From positions 40,628 through 104,627 of IMG/VR virus record IMGVR_UViG_3300020182_000008: a stretch of 64,000 nucleotides of DNA. One strand, given 5' to 3'. The stretch is from a virus. The position numbers and the translations under genes were made by a program. Positions 7 through 59,666 of this stretch are shown here, piece after piece. The stretch's first letter is position 1, and each line of letters starts with the position of its first letter. The notes under the pieces are model-generated. The model was not told where the DNA came from, ran no database searches, and saw only the letters and a list, made by a program, of their open reading frames with translations.

Positions 7-438
7 ATGATTTATTGGCTTACAGGCCAGCCCGGTGCTGGTAAAACCGTTTTAGCAAAAATGTTACATAGTAACAGACTTTTAGATTTCCATATCGATG
101 GGGACGATTTAAGAGAATTAACTAATAACAAAAACTATGGTATAGAAGGTAGAGTACAAAATGTAGCTACAGCTCAAAAAATAGCTCATTATCTCCACAA
201 TCAAGGAAGAAATGTAGTTGTATCATTAGTTTCACCTTATATAGACCAAAGAGAAGAATTTAAACAAATGCTTGGAGATAAACTAGTAGAGATTTACGTT
301 CATACAAGCGAGGAAAGAGGTAGAGAACAATACCATGTGAAAGGGTATCAACCACCGTTAAATAATTTTATAGACGTTGATACTACACATGATGAACCTG
401 AAGAATCATATAGAAAAATAATATCAAATGGCAGATAA
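7..438 (+). CDS. cysC: Adenylylsulfate (APS) kinase
   Basis: P-loop GQPGAGKT, DGDDLR, VSLVSPY...RE and EIYV motifs typical of APS kinase. Confidence 0.9.
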   Translation: MIYWLTGQPGAGKTVLAKMLHSNRLLDFHIDGDDLRELTNNKNYGIEGRVQNVATAQKIAHYLHNQGRNVVVSLVSPYIDQREEFKQMLGDKLVEIYVHTSEERGREQYHVKGYQPPLNNFIDVDTTHDEPEESYRKIISNGR

Positions 439-784
439 GTATAGTTTATTTATAGGACGTTGGCAACCATGGCATGATGGTCATAAGTGGTTAATCGATC
501 AACGTTTAAAAGAAGGTAAAAAAGTTTGTATAGCAGTTAGAGATGTAGAACCAAGCAAGGATCAACCTTGGACAGCGGATGAAATTATACAAAACATAAA
601 AGAACACCTTTACTTTGAGGTAACAGAAGATAAAGTTATTATCATCAAAATCCCAGATATCGAATCTGTAAATTACGGACGAGGAGTAGGATATGAGATT
701 ATAGAACACGTTCCACCTGAAGATATAAAACAGGTATCTGCTACAAAGATTAGAGAACAAATGAGACAAGATGGTAAATTATAA
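428..784 (+). CDS. Minimal HIGH-superfamily nucleotidyltransferase (cytidylyltransferase/NadM-like; possible mini ATP sulfurylase)
   Basis: FIGRWQPWHDGH (HxGH), YGRGVG and C-terminal VSATKIR; overlaps the cysC stop. Confidence 0.8.
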   Translation: MADKYSLFIGRWQPWHDGHKWLIDQRLKEGKKVCIAVRDVEPSKDQPWTADEIIQNIKEHLYFEVTEDKVIIIKIPDIESVNYGRGVGYEIIEHVPPEDIKQVSATKIREQMRQDGKL

Positions 785-1286
785 AGTAATAGATAATTTT
801 TTACGAGATGATATATTTCAAGAATTAAAATATACTTTATTTGGAAATAGAATTTCTTGGAGTTTTAAAAATTATCTAGCTTATCCTGGAGATAATCTAG
901 GTGGAGTAAGTTTTGCTCAATATCTTTATGATCAAAATAAAATTACTCAACCTCAATATTTTTCAATTGTAGAACCTTTAATACAAAGGGCACAAATTAA
1001 CAATTTATATAGAGCTTTAGTTAATTTAGTTCCAAAACAACCAAATAATATCCCTTCAGGAATACATACGGATCATAGTTTCCCTCATAAAGTTTTATTA
1101 TATTATGTTAATACAAATAATGGATATACTATTTTAGACCCAGAAGGAGAAAATATTAAAATACAATGTATAAAAAATAGAGCATTAATATTTAATGGAC
1201 AAATCCCTCACCAAGGAGTATTACAATCAGATACTCCTGTTAGATTAAATGTTAACTTAACTTTTGAAAAACATGGTAAGTTATAA
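771..1286 (+). CDS. 2OG-Fe(II) oxygenase
   Basis: HTD motif, LLYYVNTNNGYT, NRALIF, distal H (PHQG) and R (VRLNVN). Confidence 0.8.
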   Translation: MVNYKVIDNFLRDDIFQELKYTLFGNRISWSFKNYLAYPGDNLGGVSFAQYLYDQNKITQPQYFSIVEPLIQRAQINNLYRALVNLVPKQPNNIPSGIHTDHSFPHKVLLYYVNTNNGYTILDPEGENIKIQCIKNRALIFNGQIPHQGVLQSDTPVRLNVNLTFEKHGKL

Positions 1287-1479
1287 AAGACATATTGCTA
1301 AAACGGTTAGCTGGAGAATTATAGGTACTTTAGATACTATGTTATTATCATCTATTATTACAGATAGTTGGACAATTGGATTGACTATTGGTGGAATAGA
1401 AGTAATAACAAAAACAGTTTTATATTTTTTACATGAGAGGGCTTGGTATAAATTTAGTAAATTTGGTTTAGATAAATGA
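1273..1479 (+). CDS. DUF2061 family small membrane protein
   Basis: RHIAKTVSWRIIGTLDT...YFLHERAW signature; ATG at 1273 preferred over TTG at 1264. Confidence 0.85.
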   Translation: MVSYKRHIAKTVSWRIIGTLDTMLLSSIITDSWTIGLTIGGIEVITKTVLYFLHERAWYKFSKFGLDK

Positions 1480-2030
1480 GAATACTAATTATCGCTTTAC
1501 CTAGAACGGGCTCTTCTAATCTTTTAAAAGGAATTGCTGAAGGAAATTCTCTTAATGAATCTGAGGTTTATTATGAACCCTTTCATTTAAGTAAAAAAAA
1601 ACAAGATTTAATTTATACTAAAAATACTTTAGTAAAAACCCTAATTGAACAAACTACAAATGAATTTTTATTACAATATAAAGAAAAATTTGATAAAGTA
1701 ATATTGTTAAGTAGAAAAAATCTTTTTAAAGCCACTGAAAGTTTAGCTTATTCTTTCCAATCAGAGGATTTTCATAAACCTTATAAATTTTCTTCTAAAG
1801 GTATAGATAAAAAATGGATAAAATATTCTAAGGATTATATTAAAAAAGCTTATATCCAATTATTGAACTTTAGCTCTTTAACTAAAATTCCAATAACCTA
1901 CTATGAAGATTTATACTCAGGAAACAAAGAATTTGTAAAAAACTTTTTAAAAGTATATAATATACAAGTCCAAAATTTTGATGTTATGTATGAGTGTTTA
2001 AACCCCAAAAACAAATATAGAAAAAATTAA
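1476..2030 (+). CDS. Sulfotransferase-like protein (Stf0/NodH-like)
   Basis: PSB-loop-like LPRTGSS, YEPF, VILLSR, TYYEDL; paralog of 2850-3461. Confidence 0.6.
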   Translation: MRILIIALPRTGSSNLLKGIAEGNSLNESEVYYEPFHLSKKKQDLIYTKNTLVKTLIEQTTNEFLLQYKEKFDKVILLSRKNLFKATESLAYSFQSEDFHKPYKFSSKGIDKKWIKYSKDYIKKAYIQLLNFSSLTKIPITYYEDLYSGNKEFVKNFLKVYNIQVQNFDVMYECLNPKNKYRKN

Positions 2031-2031
2031 T

Positions 2032-2850
2032 ATGAAGCATTTAATATTAGGCTCTAGTGGGCAAATTGGAGGGCATCTAGTAAAATATTTAAAAGATAAA
2101 GGAGAAACAGTTTATGAATTTGATATTATTCGTGATCCATATGAAGACTTAAGAATAGAAGATAATTTATTATTAGAAAAATATATAACTAAGTGTGATA
2201 TAGTTCATTTTTTAGCATTTGATGTAGGAGGAGCCAAATACTTAGAAAAACATCAAGACACCTCCCAGTTCATTTTAAATAATATGGGTATAATGTACAA
2301 TACTTTTAAGGTTATTTGGCAACATAATAAGCCCGTTATATTTGCTTCTTCACAAATGGCAGAAATGGGGTATTCAACATATGGAGTACTAAAGTCTTTA
2401 GGAGAAAAAGTAACTAGGGGTATAAATGGGTTAGTAGTTAAATTTTGGAATGTTTATGGATATGAAACCGATCCTGAAAAATCGCATGTTATAACTGATT
2501 TTATTAAAATGGCTAAACATGAAGGTGTTATAAAAATGAGAACTGATGGAAATGAATCAAGACAATTTTTATATGCGGATGATGCTTGTGAAGCTTTATT
2601 ACACCTTTCAAAAAGCTACTTTAAATTACCTAAAGATAAAAATTACTGTATAACTAGTTTTGAATGGACTACTATAAATGAAATAGCTGATTTTTTAGAT
2701 GTTGTATCTAGTTGTGAAGTAATTAGGGGAACTAATAAAGATAATACTCAACAAAATGCTATGAATGAACCTGATTCTTTTATTAAAAAATATTGGCAAC
2801 CTAAAATAAATTTAAAAGAAGGTATAATGAAATTATACGAAATGTACTAA
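2032..2850 (+). CDS. NAD-dependent epimerase/dehydratase
   Basis: GSSGQIG Rossmann motif, FASS, YGVLK (YxxxK), NVYG, RQFLYADD. Confidence 0.9.
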   Translation: MKHLILGSSGQIGGHLVKYLKDKGETVYEFDIIRDPYEDLRIEDNLLLEKYITKCDIVHFLAFDVGGAKYLEKHQDTSQFILNNMGIMYNTFKVIWQHNKPVIFASSQMAEMGYSTYGVLKSLGEKVTRGINGLVVKFWNVYGYETDPEKSHVITDFIKMAKHEGVIKMRTDGNESRQFLYADDACEALLHLSKSYFKLPKDKNYCITSFEWTTINEIADFLDVVSSCEVIRGTNKDNTQQNAMNEPDSFIKKYWQPKINLKEGIMKLYEMY

Positions 2851-3461
2851 TGAAAATATTAATTTTAAGTAGTGGTAGAGCTGGATCTACATCTTTATAT
2901 AAAGGTTTAAAAAATAGCATAAATGCTTCTAAAGGATATTTTGAAGTATTTGCCCCCTCGTATCCTACCTATATACCTGATAGTGGTTCTTTAAAAAAAC
3001 ATATAAAAAAACTTAATAAAACCCATTCTAATAGAGTTGTAATAGAAAAAAATTTAGTCTTCCAACCCACCCCTTTATTCCCAGACAATTCTATTAAATT
3101 TTATTGTGAGTATCTAAATAACTTTAATAAGGTAATTTTACTAGTAAGAGAAGATGTTAATGAAATAGGTAAAAGTTTTGCTTATGCTCGATTAAATGAA
3201 ACATGGCATAAAAAATATACTTTAAATAACAAATTACCTCTAGACTTAGTTAATGACCAAATAAATTTGGCTAAACAATATAATAATATTATATTCCAAA
3301 TAGCAGAACAAACTAAAATACCTATAACTTATTATAAAAACTTATTTTCAGGTAATCAAAATTATATTAATGATTTTTTAAAAGTATATGATATCAAGGT
3401 TGATAATATAGATATTTTGTATAAAGCTTTAAATCCTAGTAACCGATATAGACAATTATGA
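2850..3461 (+). CDS. Sulfotransferase-like protein (paralog of 1476-2030)
   Basis: SGRAGSTSL loop, FEVF, VILLVR, IPITYY; C-terminus similar to 1476-2030. Confidence 0.6.
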   Translation: MKILILSSGRAGSTSLYKGLKNSINASKGYFEVFAPSYPTYIPDSGSLKKHIKKLNKTHSNRVVIEKNLVFQPTPLFPDNSIKFYCEYLNNFNKVILLVREDVNEIGKSFAYARLNETWHKKYTLNNKLPLDLVNDQINLAKQYNNIIFQIAEQTKIPITYYKNLFSGNQNYINDFLKVYDIKVDNIDILYKALNPSNRYRQL

Positions 3462-16948: not shown

Positions 16949-17557
16949 ATGAAAATAGCTTGTGATTGTTCTTACTGTTTAGAACATACATTTATTTGGG
17001 AAATAAATAGTATGGTGTGGGTTGAAATCCCAAAAAATGGCAGTCACAATTTAAAACATTTTAGATTTAAAAATAAATTAAATTTAATTAACTCTAATCA
17101 AATTAATAATTACAAAAGAGGATTTTTAATACTAAGAGATCCAATTGAAAGATTTAGATCTTTGTTATCTTTTTATTTTATTAATAATGTAGTACCTGTT
17201 ATTACAGATAAAATATATCCAAATATTAACCCCCCACGATATTTAGGAGGTTCTTGGTTATATAATTTAAAAACTAATCATAAAAATATTTGTGATATTG
17301 TTTTAGATAATTTTAAATTTATTTCTAAAATAGAAGATGCCCATCATTTTAGTTCTCAAAAAAGTTTTATACCAAATGAATTTTATAATTTAAATTTTAC
17401 AGTTTATAATTTAAAAGAAATGAATCTATTTTTTGGTATGGAAAAAAAAGTAAATACTACTAATACTTCTTCTATTTATATTAGTAAATCTAATGAACAA
17501 AAAATTAAGGATTTATATAGTGATGATGTTGAATTATATGAAAAATACTTAATATGA
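16949..17557 (+). CDS. Sulfotransferase family (Sulfotransfer_2-like)
   Basis: EIPKNGS, LRDPIERFRS, HFSSQ. Confidence 0.7.
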   Translation: MKIACDCSYCLEHTFIWEINSMVWVEIPKNGSHNLKHFRFKNKLNLINSNQINNYKRGFLILRDPIERFRSLLSFYFINNVVPVITDKIYPNINPPRYLGGSWLYNLKTNHKNICDIVLDNFKFISKIEDAHHFSSQKSFIPNEFYNLNFTVYNLKEMNLFFGMEKKVNTTNTSSIYISKSNEQKIKDLYSDDVELYEKYLI

Positions 17558-57789: not shown

Positions 57790-58590
57790 ATGTATAAATT
57801 ACGAGATATAATCTTAGAACAATCCGTTAATCCTAAGGCACTTATACTCGCTGGCTCCCCTGGTGCTGGCAAATCGTCTTTTATAGAAGGAGTTAAAAAT
57901 GCTCTTATCTTAAATGTAGACGATTACTACATGCGCAATTTAAAGGATATGGGAGTGTCTTTAGATTTAAAAAACGCAGATGCTGAAGAAAGAAGCAAAG
58001 CAGCCTCAGCAATGGCAGCAGCAAATAAAGAATTTCGCCCTTATATGCGAGATATCATCTTAGGTAAAAAGAATTTTATACTAGATGGTACAGCTGCTTC
58101 TTCTAGACCAACTTTAAAGTTAAAAGAAGAACTAGAAAATCTAGGTTACGATATACTAATGGTATATGTGTTTGCTTCACTAGAGAAAGCATTAGATAGA
58201 AACGAGACACGCTTTCAGCGCTCACAAGGTGAAGATAGAAGTTTATCACCTGCTATTGTATTACGTACCTGGAACAATATAACTCAAAACTACGAGTTGT
58301 ATCAAAAAGAATTTGGAGACAATTTCGTTTCTGTTGTAAACGATAAAGCGTTAGAAAAAGGTGAACCTATGAGCTCACTAGAATCTCTAGTAGACAAATA
58401 CATCACACCATACGCTCCAAAAGATACAAAACCAAAAACAGATAAAGAGAAAGCTCGCTCTGAAAAATCAAAATCAGAATTAGCACAACAAATCAACGAC
58501 TTTGTAGAATCAGATAAAGTAGAAGATATCAAATCAAATTCCGTATCTAAAGACGAGGCAAAGTCTCGTGTAAATTCATTTTTCTCATGA
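57790..58590 (+). CDS. Zeta-toxin-like P-loop kinase
   Basis: AGSPGAGKS, LNVDD, FILDGT, VYV.ASLEKALDRN..R. Confidence 0.8.
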   Translation: MYKLRDIILEQSVNPKALILAGSPGAGKSSFIEGVKNALILNVDDYYMRNLKDMGVSLDLKNADAEERSKAASAMAAANKEFRPYMRDIILGKKNFILDGTAASSRPTLKLKEELENLGYDILMVYVFASLEKALDRNETRFQRSQGEDRSLSPAIVLRTWNNITQNYELYQKEFGDNFVSVVNDKALEKGEPMSSLESLVDKYITPYAPKDTKPKTDKEKARSEKSKSELAQQINDFVESDKVEDIKSNSVSKDEAKSRVNSFFS

Positions 58591-59666
58591 ACCCAGAAAA
58601 AATAGGTAGTCAAATAGCGAAATCTATCCTATTAGAGGAAGTTGTAGAGAAAGTTGCTCTATATCCTGGTGCATTCAAACCACCTCATAAAGGACACGTT
58701 GCTACTGCTTTAAGAGCAAAAGAAGGAGACATAGATCGTGTTATTGTCTTTATGTCTACAAAAGAAAGAGATGGTGTTTCTGTAGAAGAAGCTCAACAAG
58801 TTTGGGATTTATATAAACAAAATAACCCAGAATTAGAGAATGTAGAGATTGTTCAAACACCCACCCCAGTAAAAGACGTTTACGATTATGCTAAAGACAA
58901 CCCAGCTAATTTAGTTAGAGCTGTATTTGGTAAAGGGGAAGAAGATAGATTCAAATCACTATTAGATAAAGAAAAATATCCCCACGTAGAGGTATTCGAT
59001 GCTGGAATGGAAGGAACATATTCAGCAACTGAATTGCGTAAAGCAATACGAGATAATGATTTAGAAACTGTAAATGATTTTATACCTGATGGTCTTAATG
59101 TAGATGATTTTATGTCTATATTTCAGTTAAATGAAGCTATATCCGAATCAATAGTAGGTGATAAAATAGTATGCGATAACTGTGGATGGGAATGGGAAAT
59201 AGCAGATGGTGGAGACGATTTGTATATATGTCACAAATGTGGACACGATAATACACCACGTAAAGATTATCTAAAAGAAGCTAGATATAAAAAATTCCTA
59301 AACGAAGGTTGGGACAATTCAAAAGGCAAAGTAATAGGAGATTTTGTAAATTATGTTAGCGAATATCTTTCTATAAATAAACCTAAAATTAAACTAATCA
59401 ACTCACCAGACTATACTCAAGAATATCACAGTTTTGGTGGTTATCTACCTTCAGAAGAAAAAATAATGGTTGTTGTTCACAATCGTAACATGGCTGATAT
59501 ATTAAGAACCGTAGCACACGAGATGGTTCACCATATGCAAAATCTAGACGATAGATTAACACCCAAATCAGGTGAAGACGGATCACCAGATGAAAATGAA
59601 GCTAATTCGTTAGCGGCGGTTATAATGAGAAAATTTGGACGTGAAAATCCACACATATATGAATAG
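58587..59666 (+). CDS. Fusion: HIGH nucleotidyltransferase, zinc ribbon and HExxH metallopeptidase-like domain
   Basis: YPGAFKPPHKGH, YSATELR; CDNC...CHKC; RTVAHEMVHHMQ, E.EAN. Confidence 0.8.
   Translation: MNPEKIGSQIAKSILLEEVVEKVALYPGAFKPPHKGHVATALRAKEGDIDRVIVFMSTKERDGVSVEEAQQVWDLYKQNNPELENVEIVQTPTPVKDVYDYAKDNPANLVRAVFGKGEEDRFKSLLDKEKYPHVEVFDAGMEGTYSATELRKAIRDNDLETVNDFIPDGLNVDDFMSIFQLNEAISESIVGDKIVCDNCGWEWEIADGGDDLYICHKCGHDNTPRKDYLKEARYKKFLNEGWDNSKGKVIGDFVNYVSEYLSINKPKIKLINSPDYTQEYHSFGGYLPSEEKIMVVVHNRNMADILRTVAHEMVHHMQNLDDRLTPKSGEDGSPDENEANSLAAVIMRKFGRENPHIYE

Follow-up and report, generated by a model that had tools for sequence, protein, structure and literature searches.

The DNA considered here is a window of 64,000 nucleotides, bases 40628-104627 of the 166-kb virus record IMGVR_UViG_3300020182_000008 (rated complete), which opens inside a tightly packed operon on the plus strand. 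Two overlapping genes at its start are the subject of this work. One encodes a 143-residue protein of the adenosine 5′-phosphosulfate (APS) kinase family, and the other a 118-residue nucleotidyltransferase (NT) of the HIGH superfamily that is a candidate for a minimal ATP sulfurylase; together they could form a synthase for 3′-phosphoadenosine 5′-phosphosulfate (PAPS). The open reading frame (ORF) upstream of the kinase gene terminates at position 10, the kinase and NT ORFs share 11 nt (428-438), and the 3′ end of the NT ORF overlaps the next ORF by 14 nt (771-784). Because of these overlaps, translation of the kinase and the NT is probably tightly coupled, as judged from the gene layout. An initial annotation of the sequence had described an APS kinase overlapping a 118-residue NT with HxGH, YGRGVG and SATKIR motifs, and this description is confirmed by the overlap, by matches of the two proteins to PF01583 and PF01467, respectively, and by conservation of the motifs over 113 members of the NT family.

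The kinase matches the Pfam APS_kinase model with 65.3 bits against a cut-off of 21.1, over profile positions 4-146 of 152, and falls below the NCBIfam equivalog cut-off of TIGR00455 (61.6 vs 138.7 bits), as a divergent and shortened member of the family. All of its best solved relatives are APS kinases: 5cb6 (E=2e-11), PAPSS1, and those of Arabidopsis and Aquifex. The P-loop GxxGxGK(S/T), the DGDxxR motif, the Arg and Asn of (D)RxxN, and SP(Y/F) are all present. When the phage kinase is aligned with homologues from phages (22 sequences) and with kinase domains taken from natural NT-kinase fusions (alignment A4), residues G7, G12, K13, D31, R36, R49, and P77 are invariant and N52 is at least 90% conserved. 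Among these, R36, R49, and N52 correspond to the residues of PAPSS1 that contact APS. The full mobile lid, KGxYKKAR...GEIxxFTGxD, is not complete in the phage protein: relative to the canonical domains of the NT-kinase fusions, phage-type kinases lack ∼14 residues of the lid (the ‘...GEIxxFTGxD’ part). An ungapped HMMER pairing with PAPSS1, in which the equivalent of lid residue F185 appeared to be kept, was overruled by the multiple alignment showing this deletion. Because the bacterial fusion proteins contain a complete canonical CysC sequence, the phage kinase is, by sequence comparison, a true APS kinase that has been trimmed.

The NT just passes the cut-off of the CTP_transf_like model PF01467 (23.2 bits against 21). 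Its motifs, read from the sequence, are FIGRWQPWHDGH (residues 8-19), NYGRGVGY (82-89), and VSATKIR (103-109), which take the consensus forms GRWQPxHxGH, NYGRxVGY, and ISATxIR across the family. A word-indexed protein search returned more than 8000 relatives, mostly 116-118 residues in length and from marine metagenomes, and the family comprises 1253 cluster representatives (50% identity) at E≤0.001. Residues invariant or at least 90% conserved over the 113 members, which are diverse, are G10, R11, H16, G18, H19, R38, P47, G84, R85, V87, G88, Y89, S104, T106, and R109. The best named relatives are NadM and archaeal nicotinamide mononucleotide (NMN) adenylyltransferases (NMNATs), of which only the part corresponding to NT residues 6-80 aligns; the NMNAT models TIGR01527 and NF002243 give 37.6 bits (cut-off 181.2) and 43.8 bits (cut-off 127), and the match to 1f9a (MJ0541) has E=4e-13 over the N-terminal 80 residues. 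Profile alignment shows that residues 77-109 of MJ0541 are replaced in the NT by 8 residues that include the invariant G84-R85, the NT passing from 79 to 88 while 1f9a passes from 76 to 110. This shortening is family-wide, with a distance from HxGH to ISxT of 77-86 residues in the NT family vs 107-115 in true NMNAT genes; ∼27-33 residues of the NMNAT core are missing throughout the family, and two conserved arginines, R38 and R85, are new. In the Mj and Mth NMNAT structures (1f9a and 1ej2), the NMN contacts lie in the segment that is deleted here (helix C-β4-αD).

An AlphaFold2 model of the NT (predicted local distance difference test score, pLDDT, 94.9) contains only three regular strands by DSSP and a long ordered loop at residues 77-97, and lacks the complete five-stranded NMNAT core (helix C, β4, and αD are absent). 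In a structure search, MJ0541 NMNAT (Z 10.7), phosphopantetheine adenylyltransferase (PPAT; Z 10.6), and NadM (Z 10.0) rank above the ATP sulfurylases, among which Thermus thermophilus 1v47 gives Z 8.2 over 115 residues, 1j70 gives Z 6.0 over 111, and other Sat structures ∼6. The modelled fold assigns the NT to the HIGH-nucleotidyltransferase superfamily without naming its substrate. In sequence, PF01747 (Sat) gave no match to the NT at E≤0.1 in a Pfam search, the Sat motifs QxRNPxHxxH and GRDHAG are not present as such, and an hhalign comparison of the NT family alignment (A1) with 24 Sat catalytic domains was insignificant and mis-registered (probability 1.4%). The equivalence of YGRGVG with the GRDHAGVG motif of Sat, on which the initial annotation had drawn, is not borne out by that comparison, whereas its caveat that the N-terminal GRWQPWH motif lies nearer to NadM-type NMNATs agrees with the ranking by both sequence and structure. 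By descent, as traced through these alignments, the NT is a derivative of NadM-type NMNATs and not a member of the Sat family. The phage carries genes for two more HIGH-family nucleotidyltransferases, which belong to other subtypes: a 359-residue fusion with weak PPAT-like similarity (window positions 58587-59666) and a 155-residue generic cytidylyl/adenylyltransferase (G000:C1:110370-110837; L193:371-838).

The linkage of the NT to an APS kinase is obligate and constitutes the strongest result of the analysis. A kinase gene lies upstream of the NT, on the same strand, in all 78 evaluable viral loci (80 IMG/VR loci, two of which end at a contig edge), co-occurrence with cysC across phage genomes being a check that the initial annotation had proposed; the two genes are directly adjacent in 64 of the 80. 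Both domains are likewise present, fused or adjacent and in either order, in 22 of 22 bacterial-genome loci, whose carriers comprise Acidobacteriota, Omnitrophota, Saccharibacteria, Scalindua, Pyrinomonadaceae, Nomura-, Morani-, Zambryskii-, and Peregrini/Peribacteria, Chlamydiae, Planctomycetota, a Pelagibacteraceae single-cell genome, Rhodospirillaceae, and Flavobacteriaceae. About 45 of the 150 best NT cluster representatives are fusions with an APS kinase, some kinase-first (P0132, P0136, and P0159 among others) and some NT-first (P0138, P0151, and P0243 among others); four additional fusions were detected by Pfam only, and PHROG 10255, labelled ‘kinase’, is itself a kinase-NT fusion. By contrast, an APS-kinase gene occurs within 10 kb of none of 58 true NadM-type NMNAT loci, a control set that shares the GRxQPxHxGH pattern. 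A complex prediction for the kinase (A4) and the NT (A1) returned a score of 0.00 and speaks neither for nor against the pairing.

Fusions of the two domains, assigned to PHROG 10255, also occur in cultured phages. Gp32 of Xylella phage Salvo (L001:5578-6324) and AAY80_227 of Stenotrophomonas phage DLP_6 (L002:4593-5324) are kinase-NT fusions that are annotated just as ‘kinase’ or ‘hypothetical’ and have early genes and genes of DNA metabolism (MazG, topoisomerase, ligase) as neighbours; these two phages are convenient experimental sources of the enzyme. Rare other partners of the NT are an N-terminal class I S-adenosylmethionine-dependent methyltransferase (P0270) and DUF6717 (P0174).

Among the 22 bacterial carrier genomes, Sat (PF01747) was found in one and CysD (TIGR02039) in five, and two further carriers have CysH-like PAPS_reduct genes alone. 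Because Sat or CysD is present in only six, the remaining 16, which have no canonical ATP sulfurylase, are left without a known way to APS. These include a 0.7-Mb Saccharibacteria metagenome-assembled genome (MAG) with at least three sulfotransferase matches and a SAR11-family single-cell genome with three. In a control of 121 genomes, drawn from the phylum to which one of the carriers belongs and unmatched to the carriers in phylum or completeness, 101 have an APS kinase, and all 101 of these have Sat or CysD; incompleteness alone is unlikely to be the cause of this contrast. A profile search of the genome of the phage under study found neither Sat nor PAPS_reduct/CysD genes.

The surroundings of the pair in bacteria and in some viruses point to sulfation. 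Sulfotransfer_3 was detected in 12 of the 22 carrier genomes vs 2 of 14 reference genomes, and genes of this family adjoin the pair in L017, L029, and L051, the last of which also has a TauE-family permease. The neighbours are sulfotransferase-glycosyltransferase fusions together with cysD and cysN in an Acidobacteriota MAG (L006), a CysQ-like Inositol_P phosphatase and a Wzt exporter in Moraniibacteria (L020), and two sulfatases in Planctomycetota (L022). CysH-like genes are found elsewhere in the genome in carriers G005 and G006. A Pfam-recognised sulfotransferase stands immediately upstream of the kinase in nine viral loci.

Within the window, the initial annotation had named three sulfotransferase-like genes as recipients of PAPS. 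All three are confirmed as sulfotransferase-like: the gene at 1476 resembles Stf0/Sulfotransfer_3 clusters in features and in structure, that at 2850 is its paralogue, and the gene at 16949 is a weaker candidate (Table 1). A Pfam search gave no match for the first of these, and PF13469 found nothing in the phage under study, Salvo, or DLP_6, a null that is uninformative for these three phages because the phage's own sulfotransferase-like genes were also missed. Further genes downstream encode a WavE-like protein, a HAD/NTP-transferase fusion, and a family 2 glycosyltransferase. On the other side, the kinase is preceded by a run of closely spaced ORFs on the same strand (∼14 kb upstream of window position 1), and several of these, judged by eye from their N-terminal sequences only, resemble sugar-nucleotide enzymes (epimerase/dehydratase-, aminotransferase-, methyltransferase-, and glycosyltransferase-like). 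Because of these upstream and downstream genes, we assign the kinase-NT pair to a gene cluster for glycan modification that spans some 20 kb. The oxygenase-like gene between the NT and DUF2061 is an insertion at this locus and is not found at that place in L003, L007, or most viral loci.

Table 1. Genes of the kinase-NT locus and sulfotransferase-like genes in the window (TM, template modelling score).
Position	Strand	Length (aa)	Predicted product	Supporting match
7-438	+	143	Cut-down APS kinase, CysC-like; P-loop, DGDxxR, R49/N52, and SPY kept	PF01583, E=8e-18
428-784	+	118	HIGH-superfamily nucleotidyltransferase (NT); candidate minimal ATP sulfurylase	PF01467
771-1286	+	171	2-Oxoglutarate (2OG)-Fe(II)-oxygenase-like	phrog_274, E=3e-39; weak FlmC-family match
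1264-1479	+	71	DUF2061 small membrane protein	PF09834, E=4e-22
1476-2030	+	184	Sulfotransferase-like (Stf0/Sulfotransfer_3-like), presumed PAPS user	Atlas feature score 0.96; TM 0.70-0.74
2032-2850	+		NAD-dependent sugar epimerase/dehydratase	PF01370, E=1e-21
2850-3461	+	203	Second sulfotransferase-like protein, paralogue of 1476-2030	BLASTP 34% identity, E=5e-33
16949-17557	+		Third, weaker sulfotransferase candidate (Sulfotransfer_2-like)	PF03567, E=0.0024; 18.5 bits, under the 22-bit cut-off

DUF2061 follows the NT in 38 of the 80 viral loci, mostly at a distance of no more than 300 bp, as well as in L003 and L007, and one NT-DUF2061 fusion is known (P0175). A general link between DUF2061 and cysDN/cysC in bacteria was considered and dropped, as an APS kinase neighbours only 1 of the 35 DUF2061 matches in the 121 genomes (G044). 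The linkage of DUF2061 is confined to the kinase-NT module and does not extend to sulfate genes in ordinary bacteria; it is a guess that the protein serves as a membrane anchor and keeps PAPS production close to lipid-linked glycan acceptors.

Several other neighbours recur in particular groups of loci. An N4/N6 DNA methyltransferase (PF01555) is encoded 4-1400 bp downstream of the NT in 34 of the 80 viral loci (for example, L171:1847-2698); these loci form one lineage, with NTs that are 59-63% identical, and their context is unlike glycan sulfation. In a 193-kb phage contig (L003:5630-11873), kinase, NT, and DUF2061 genes are followed by a 545-residue NodU/CmcH-type carbamoyltransferase, with QueC, PTPS, and radical-SAM genes of the 7-deazaguanine pathway in the flanks and no sulfotransferase visible there. 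A protein of ∼470 residues with a weak DHH-family match (E=8.5e-4) is encoded 2.3-3.0 kb downstream of the NT in 26 of the 80 viral loci (L113-L192; for example, L176:5870-7279), and in P0233 the NT is fused to a DHHA1 domain. Some DHH/DHHA1 enzymes are phosphatases of 3′-phosphoadenosine 5′-phosphate (pAp or PAP), and by analogy this neighbour may therefore perform the PAP-removal step of a PAPS cycle. In a Flavobacteriaceae MAG (L051:1716-2720) and a Pelagibacteraceae single-cell genome (L026:10942-11940), the NT gene is directly followed by one for a ∼335-residue protein that consists of a pyruvate-kinase barrel only (PF00224, E∼1e-60), with a sulfotransferase next in L051; the NTs of both genomes have Met in place of R38. 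The barrel protein may be an ATP-regenerating or otherwise coupled partner.

Taken together, the obligate linkage or fusion to APS kinase, the sulfation context, and the absence of Sat and CysD from most carriers make ATP sulfurylase the best explanation of the NT. We consider it fairly probable, on comparative genomic grounds, that the two overlapping genes together encode a minimal PAPS synthase of two polypeptides, with APS made by the NT. The stripped-down ATP sulfurylase paired with an APS kinase that the initial annotation had suggested is thus retained on the strength of comparative genomics, without the motif argument first offered for it. In its wider form, to which we give slightly better than even chances, the proposal is that the NT family constitutes a third, miniature (∼115-residue) class of ATP sulfurylase that evolved from NadM-type NMNATs by deletion of the NMN-binding segment; that the PAPS synthase formed with its cut-down APS kinase is the smallest known; that it is widespread in marine and freshwater phages; and that it is the only sulfate-activating enzyme in many bacteria of the candidate phyla radiation (CPR), Omnitrophota, SAR11-type cells, and other bacteria without Sat and CysDN. 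The gene structure, membership of the superfamily, the obligate linkage of kinase and NT, the sulfation context, and the lack of a canonical ATP sulfurylase in most carriers are established by the analysis; that the substrate is sulfate, what R38 and R85 do, and how the product is used are inferred.

A mechanism can be proposed by comparison with other HIGH-family enzymes, which set an oxyanion nucleophile, sulfate in the case of Sat, against the α-phosphate of a bound NTP with release of pyrophosphate (PPi). The NT would hold ATP through its HxGH and ISxTxxR motifs, of which R11, H16, and H19, and S104, T106, and R109 are kept, and sulfate would attack the α-phosphate (ATP + sulfate → APS + PPi). 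R38, in the loop after strand 2, and R85, in the loop after strand 3, would lie near the active site and are candidate sulfate holders that would form a pocket for a small dianion; the NT has lost the part with which NMNATs hold their larger second substrate. The APS kinase, co-translated or fused, would then phosphorylate the 3′-OH of APS to yield PAPS, and capture of APS by the kinase would draw the unfavourable sulfurylase step forward. Such immediate capture would fit both the very unfavourable sulfurylase equilibrium and the obligate coupling to the kinase. PAPS would finally supply the two or three sulfotransferase-like enzymes of the ∼20-kb glycan-modification operon.

Several observations weigh against this assignment. 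Beyond the fold of the superfamily, no homology between the NT and Sat is detectable in sequence, and the lid of the phage kinase is truncated, such that activity of this kinase is an assumption. Most of the carriers are MAGs whose completeness is not known, and the control genomes come from another phylum. Many phage copies are flanked by DNA methyltransferases (the 34 viral loci noted above) or by DNA-metabolism genes, with no recognisable sulfotransferase nearby. Lastly, Sat or CysD coexists with an apparently intact NT in 6 of the 22 carrier genomes. In the Acidobacteriota MAG (L006:5117-8259), cysN and cysD are divergently adjacent to an NT-CysC fusion, so that the NT is not always the sole candidate for a source of APS; the NT of this locus is the only copy examined that has His for the near-invariant R85. 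In G017, a kinase-NT fusion lies 3 kb from a sulfotransferase, with cysDNC on a different contig. A pair that stands beside Sat or CysD could be a dedicated second sulfation module, and the coexistence leaves room for an accessory role of the NT.

Such a role defines one of the alternatives, in which the host's Sat or CysDN would provide APS and the NT would be an accessory partner of the kinase, acting as an ATP- or APS-binding scaffold, a regulator, or an enzyme on PAP, PAPS, or PPi. The six genomes with both systems, directly adjacent in one instance, fit this view, as does the presence of PDB entry 3cr8 among the fold matches of the NT; the relevant part of 3cr8 is interpreted as a non-catalytic, scaffold-type domain, and sulfurylase- or kinase-like domains of this kind are known in sulfate-activating enzymes. 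The near-invariance of HxGH, R11, and ISxTxxR throughout the family would be unexpected for a pure scaffold, however, and 16 of 22 carriers have no other source of APS, against none of the 101 control genomes with CysC, such that we regard an accessory function as improbable. We judge a change of substrate to be unlikely as well, if marginally less so: the NT would adenylylate some other small anion or phosphoester, the kinase would 3′-phosphorylate the product to a PAPS analogue, and a group other than sulfate would be transferred. APS-kinase homologues can act on other nucleotide-activated groups, as Campylobacter Cj1415 makes 3′-phospho-CDP-amidate in the O-methyl phosphoramidate (MeOPN) pathway. 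The substrate of the NT is deduced from context alone, the lid that closes over APS is shortened in the phage-type kinase, and some loci have a carbamoyltransferase with 7-deazaguanine genes, or DNA methyltransferases, in place of sulfotransferases. Countering these points, the presumed APS contacts R36, R49, and N52 are conserved, the kinase of the fusions is a canonical CysC, the neighbours include sulfate-specific genes (CysQ, sulfatases, and Pfam-recognised sulfotransferases), two carriers have CysH-like genes elsewhere in the genome, and the missing-enzyme argument indicates sulfate.

The descent of the NT suggests a further alternative, namely that it adenylylates NMN and that its partner phosphorylates a nucleoside, the two providing NadR-like NAD+ salvage against NAD-depleting defences. 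The closest relatives in both sequence and structure are NadM and archaeal NMNATs, source databases label NT homologues as NMNATs, and the phage proteins that match most closely over their full length are kinase-NT fusions from phages in which no sulfation context is visible, the true NadM-Nudix genes of other phages aligning to the N-terminal part only. Nevertheless, all NMNAT models score far under their cut-offs and cover the N-terminal 80 residues alone. The 27-33 residues deleted family-wide carry NMN-binding elements in NMNATs, the partner kinase belongs to the APS kinase family and not to the ribosylnicotinamide kinase (RNK) type of NadR, none of the 58 true NMNAT loci carries an APS kinase, and neither NAMPT nor NAPRTase was found in the phage genome. 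We therefore consider NAD+ salvage very improbable.

Phage-encoded APS kinases are themselves known as cysC auxiliary metabolic genes and are transcribed in nature (PMC10914622). That study reads phage cysC as a lone booster of assimilatory sulfate reduction by the host and leaves the NT partner unmentioned, and our literature search found no paper on the NT partner, on a kinase-NT fusion, or on a minimal ATP sulfurylase. The pair is probably a PAPS synthase whose first enzyme belongs to an undescribed class. If so, the NT would represent a third, so far unrecognised class of sulfate-activating enzyme that is now annotated as ‘NMN adenylyltransferase’ or ‘hypothetical’, and phage ‘cysC’ auxiliary genes would be self-sufficient PAPS factories as opposed to boosters of a host pathway. 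The assignment would explain how small-genome bacteria such as Saccharibacteria, Peregrinibacteria, and SAR11-type cells, which lack Sat and CysDN yet encode sulfotransferases or proteins that handle APS, obtain activated sulfate. At ∼260 residues in two parts, the module would be smaller than any other known route to PAPS and of use in enzymology and in-vitro sulfation, and infection by this phage would entail virus-directed sulfation of glycans on the host surface or the virion.

The proposed two-step logic, with coupled partners, is that of the bifunctional PAPS synthases and Sat-APS kinase fusions (PAPSS1/2, 1x6v; Aquifex 2gks; bacterial CysNC), with which the pair shares a homologous kinase domain and the occurrence of fusions in both domain orders. 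It differs from them in that the NT is ∼115 instead of ∼400 residues long, has neither a PUA-like N-domain nor a PF01747 match, derives from the NMNAT branch of the HIGH superfamily, and is encoded in this phage by a separate, overlapping gene. With Sat/MET3 (PF01747; 1v47, 1j70) the NT has the superfamily fold and the proposed chemistry in common, in the absence of a sequence-level match; it is roughly a third as large as the Sat catalytic core together with its flanking domains. The archaeal and NadM NMNATs (TIGR01527, NF002243; 1f9a, 1ej2, 2qjt) share GRxQPxHxGH, ISxTxxR, and the N-terminal 80 residues; the NT is set apart from them by SVNYGRxV in place of residues 77-109 of 1f9a, by the conserved arginines 38 and 85, and by an invariable linkage to APS kinase that NMNAT genes never show. 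CoA synthase (PPAT with dephospho-CoA kinase) and NadR (NMNAT with RNK) likewise couple or fuse a small HIGH nucleotidyltransferase and a P-loop kinase within one pathway, but the kinase here is of the PF01583 family and not CoaE or RNK, and the context is that of sulfation, not of CoA or NAD.

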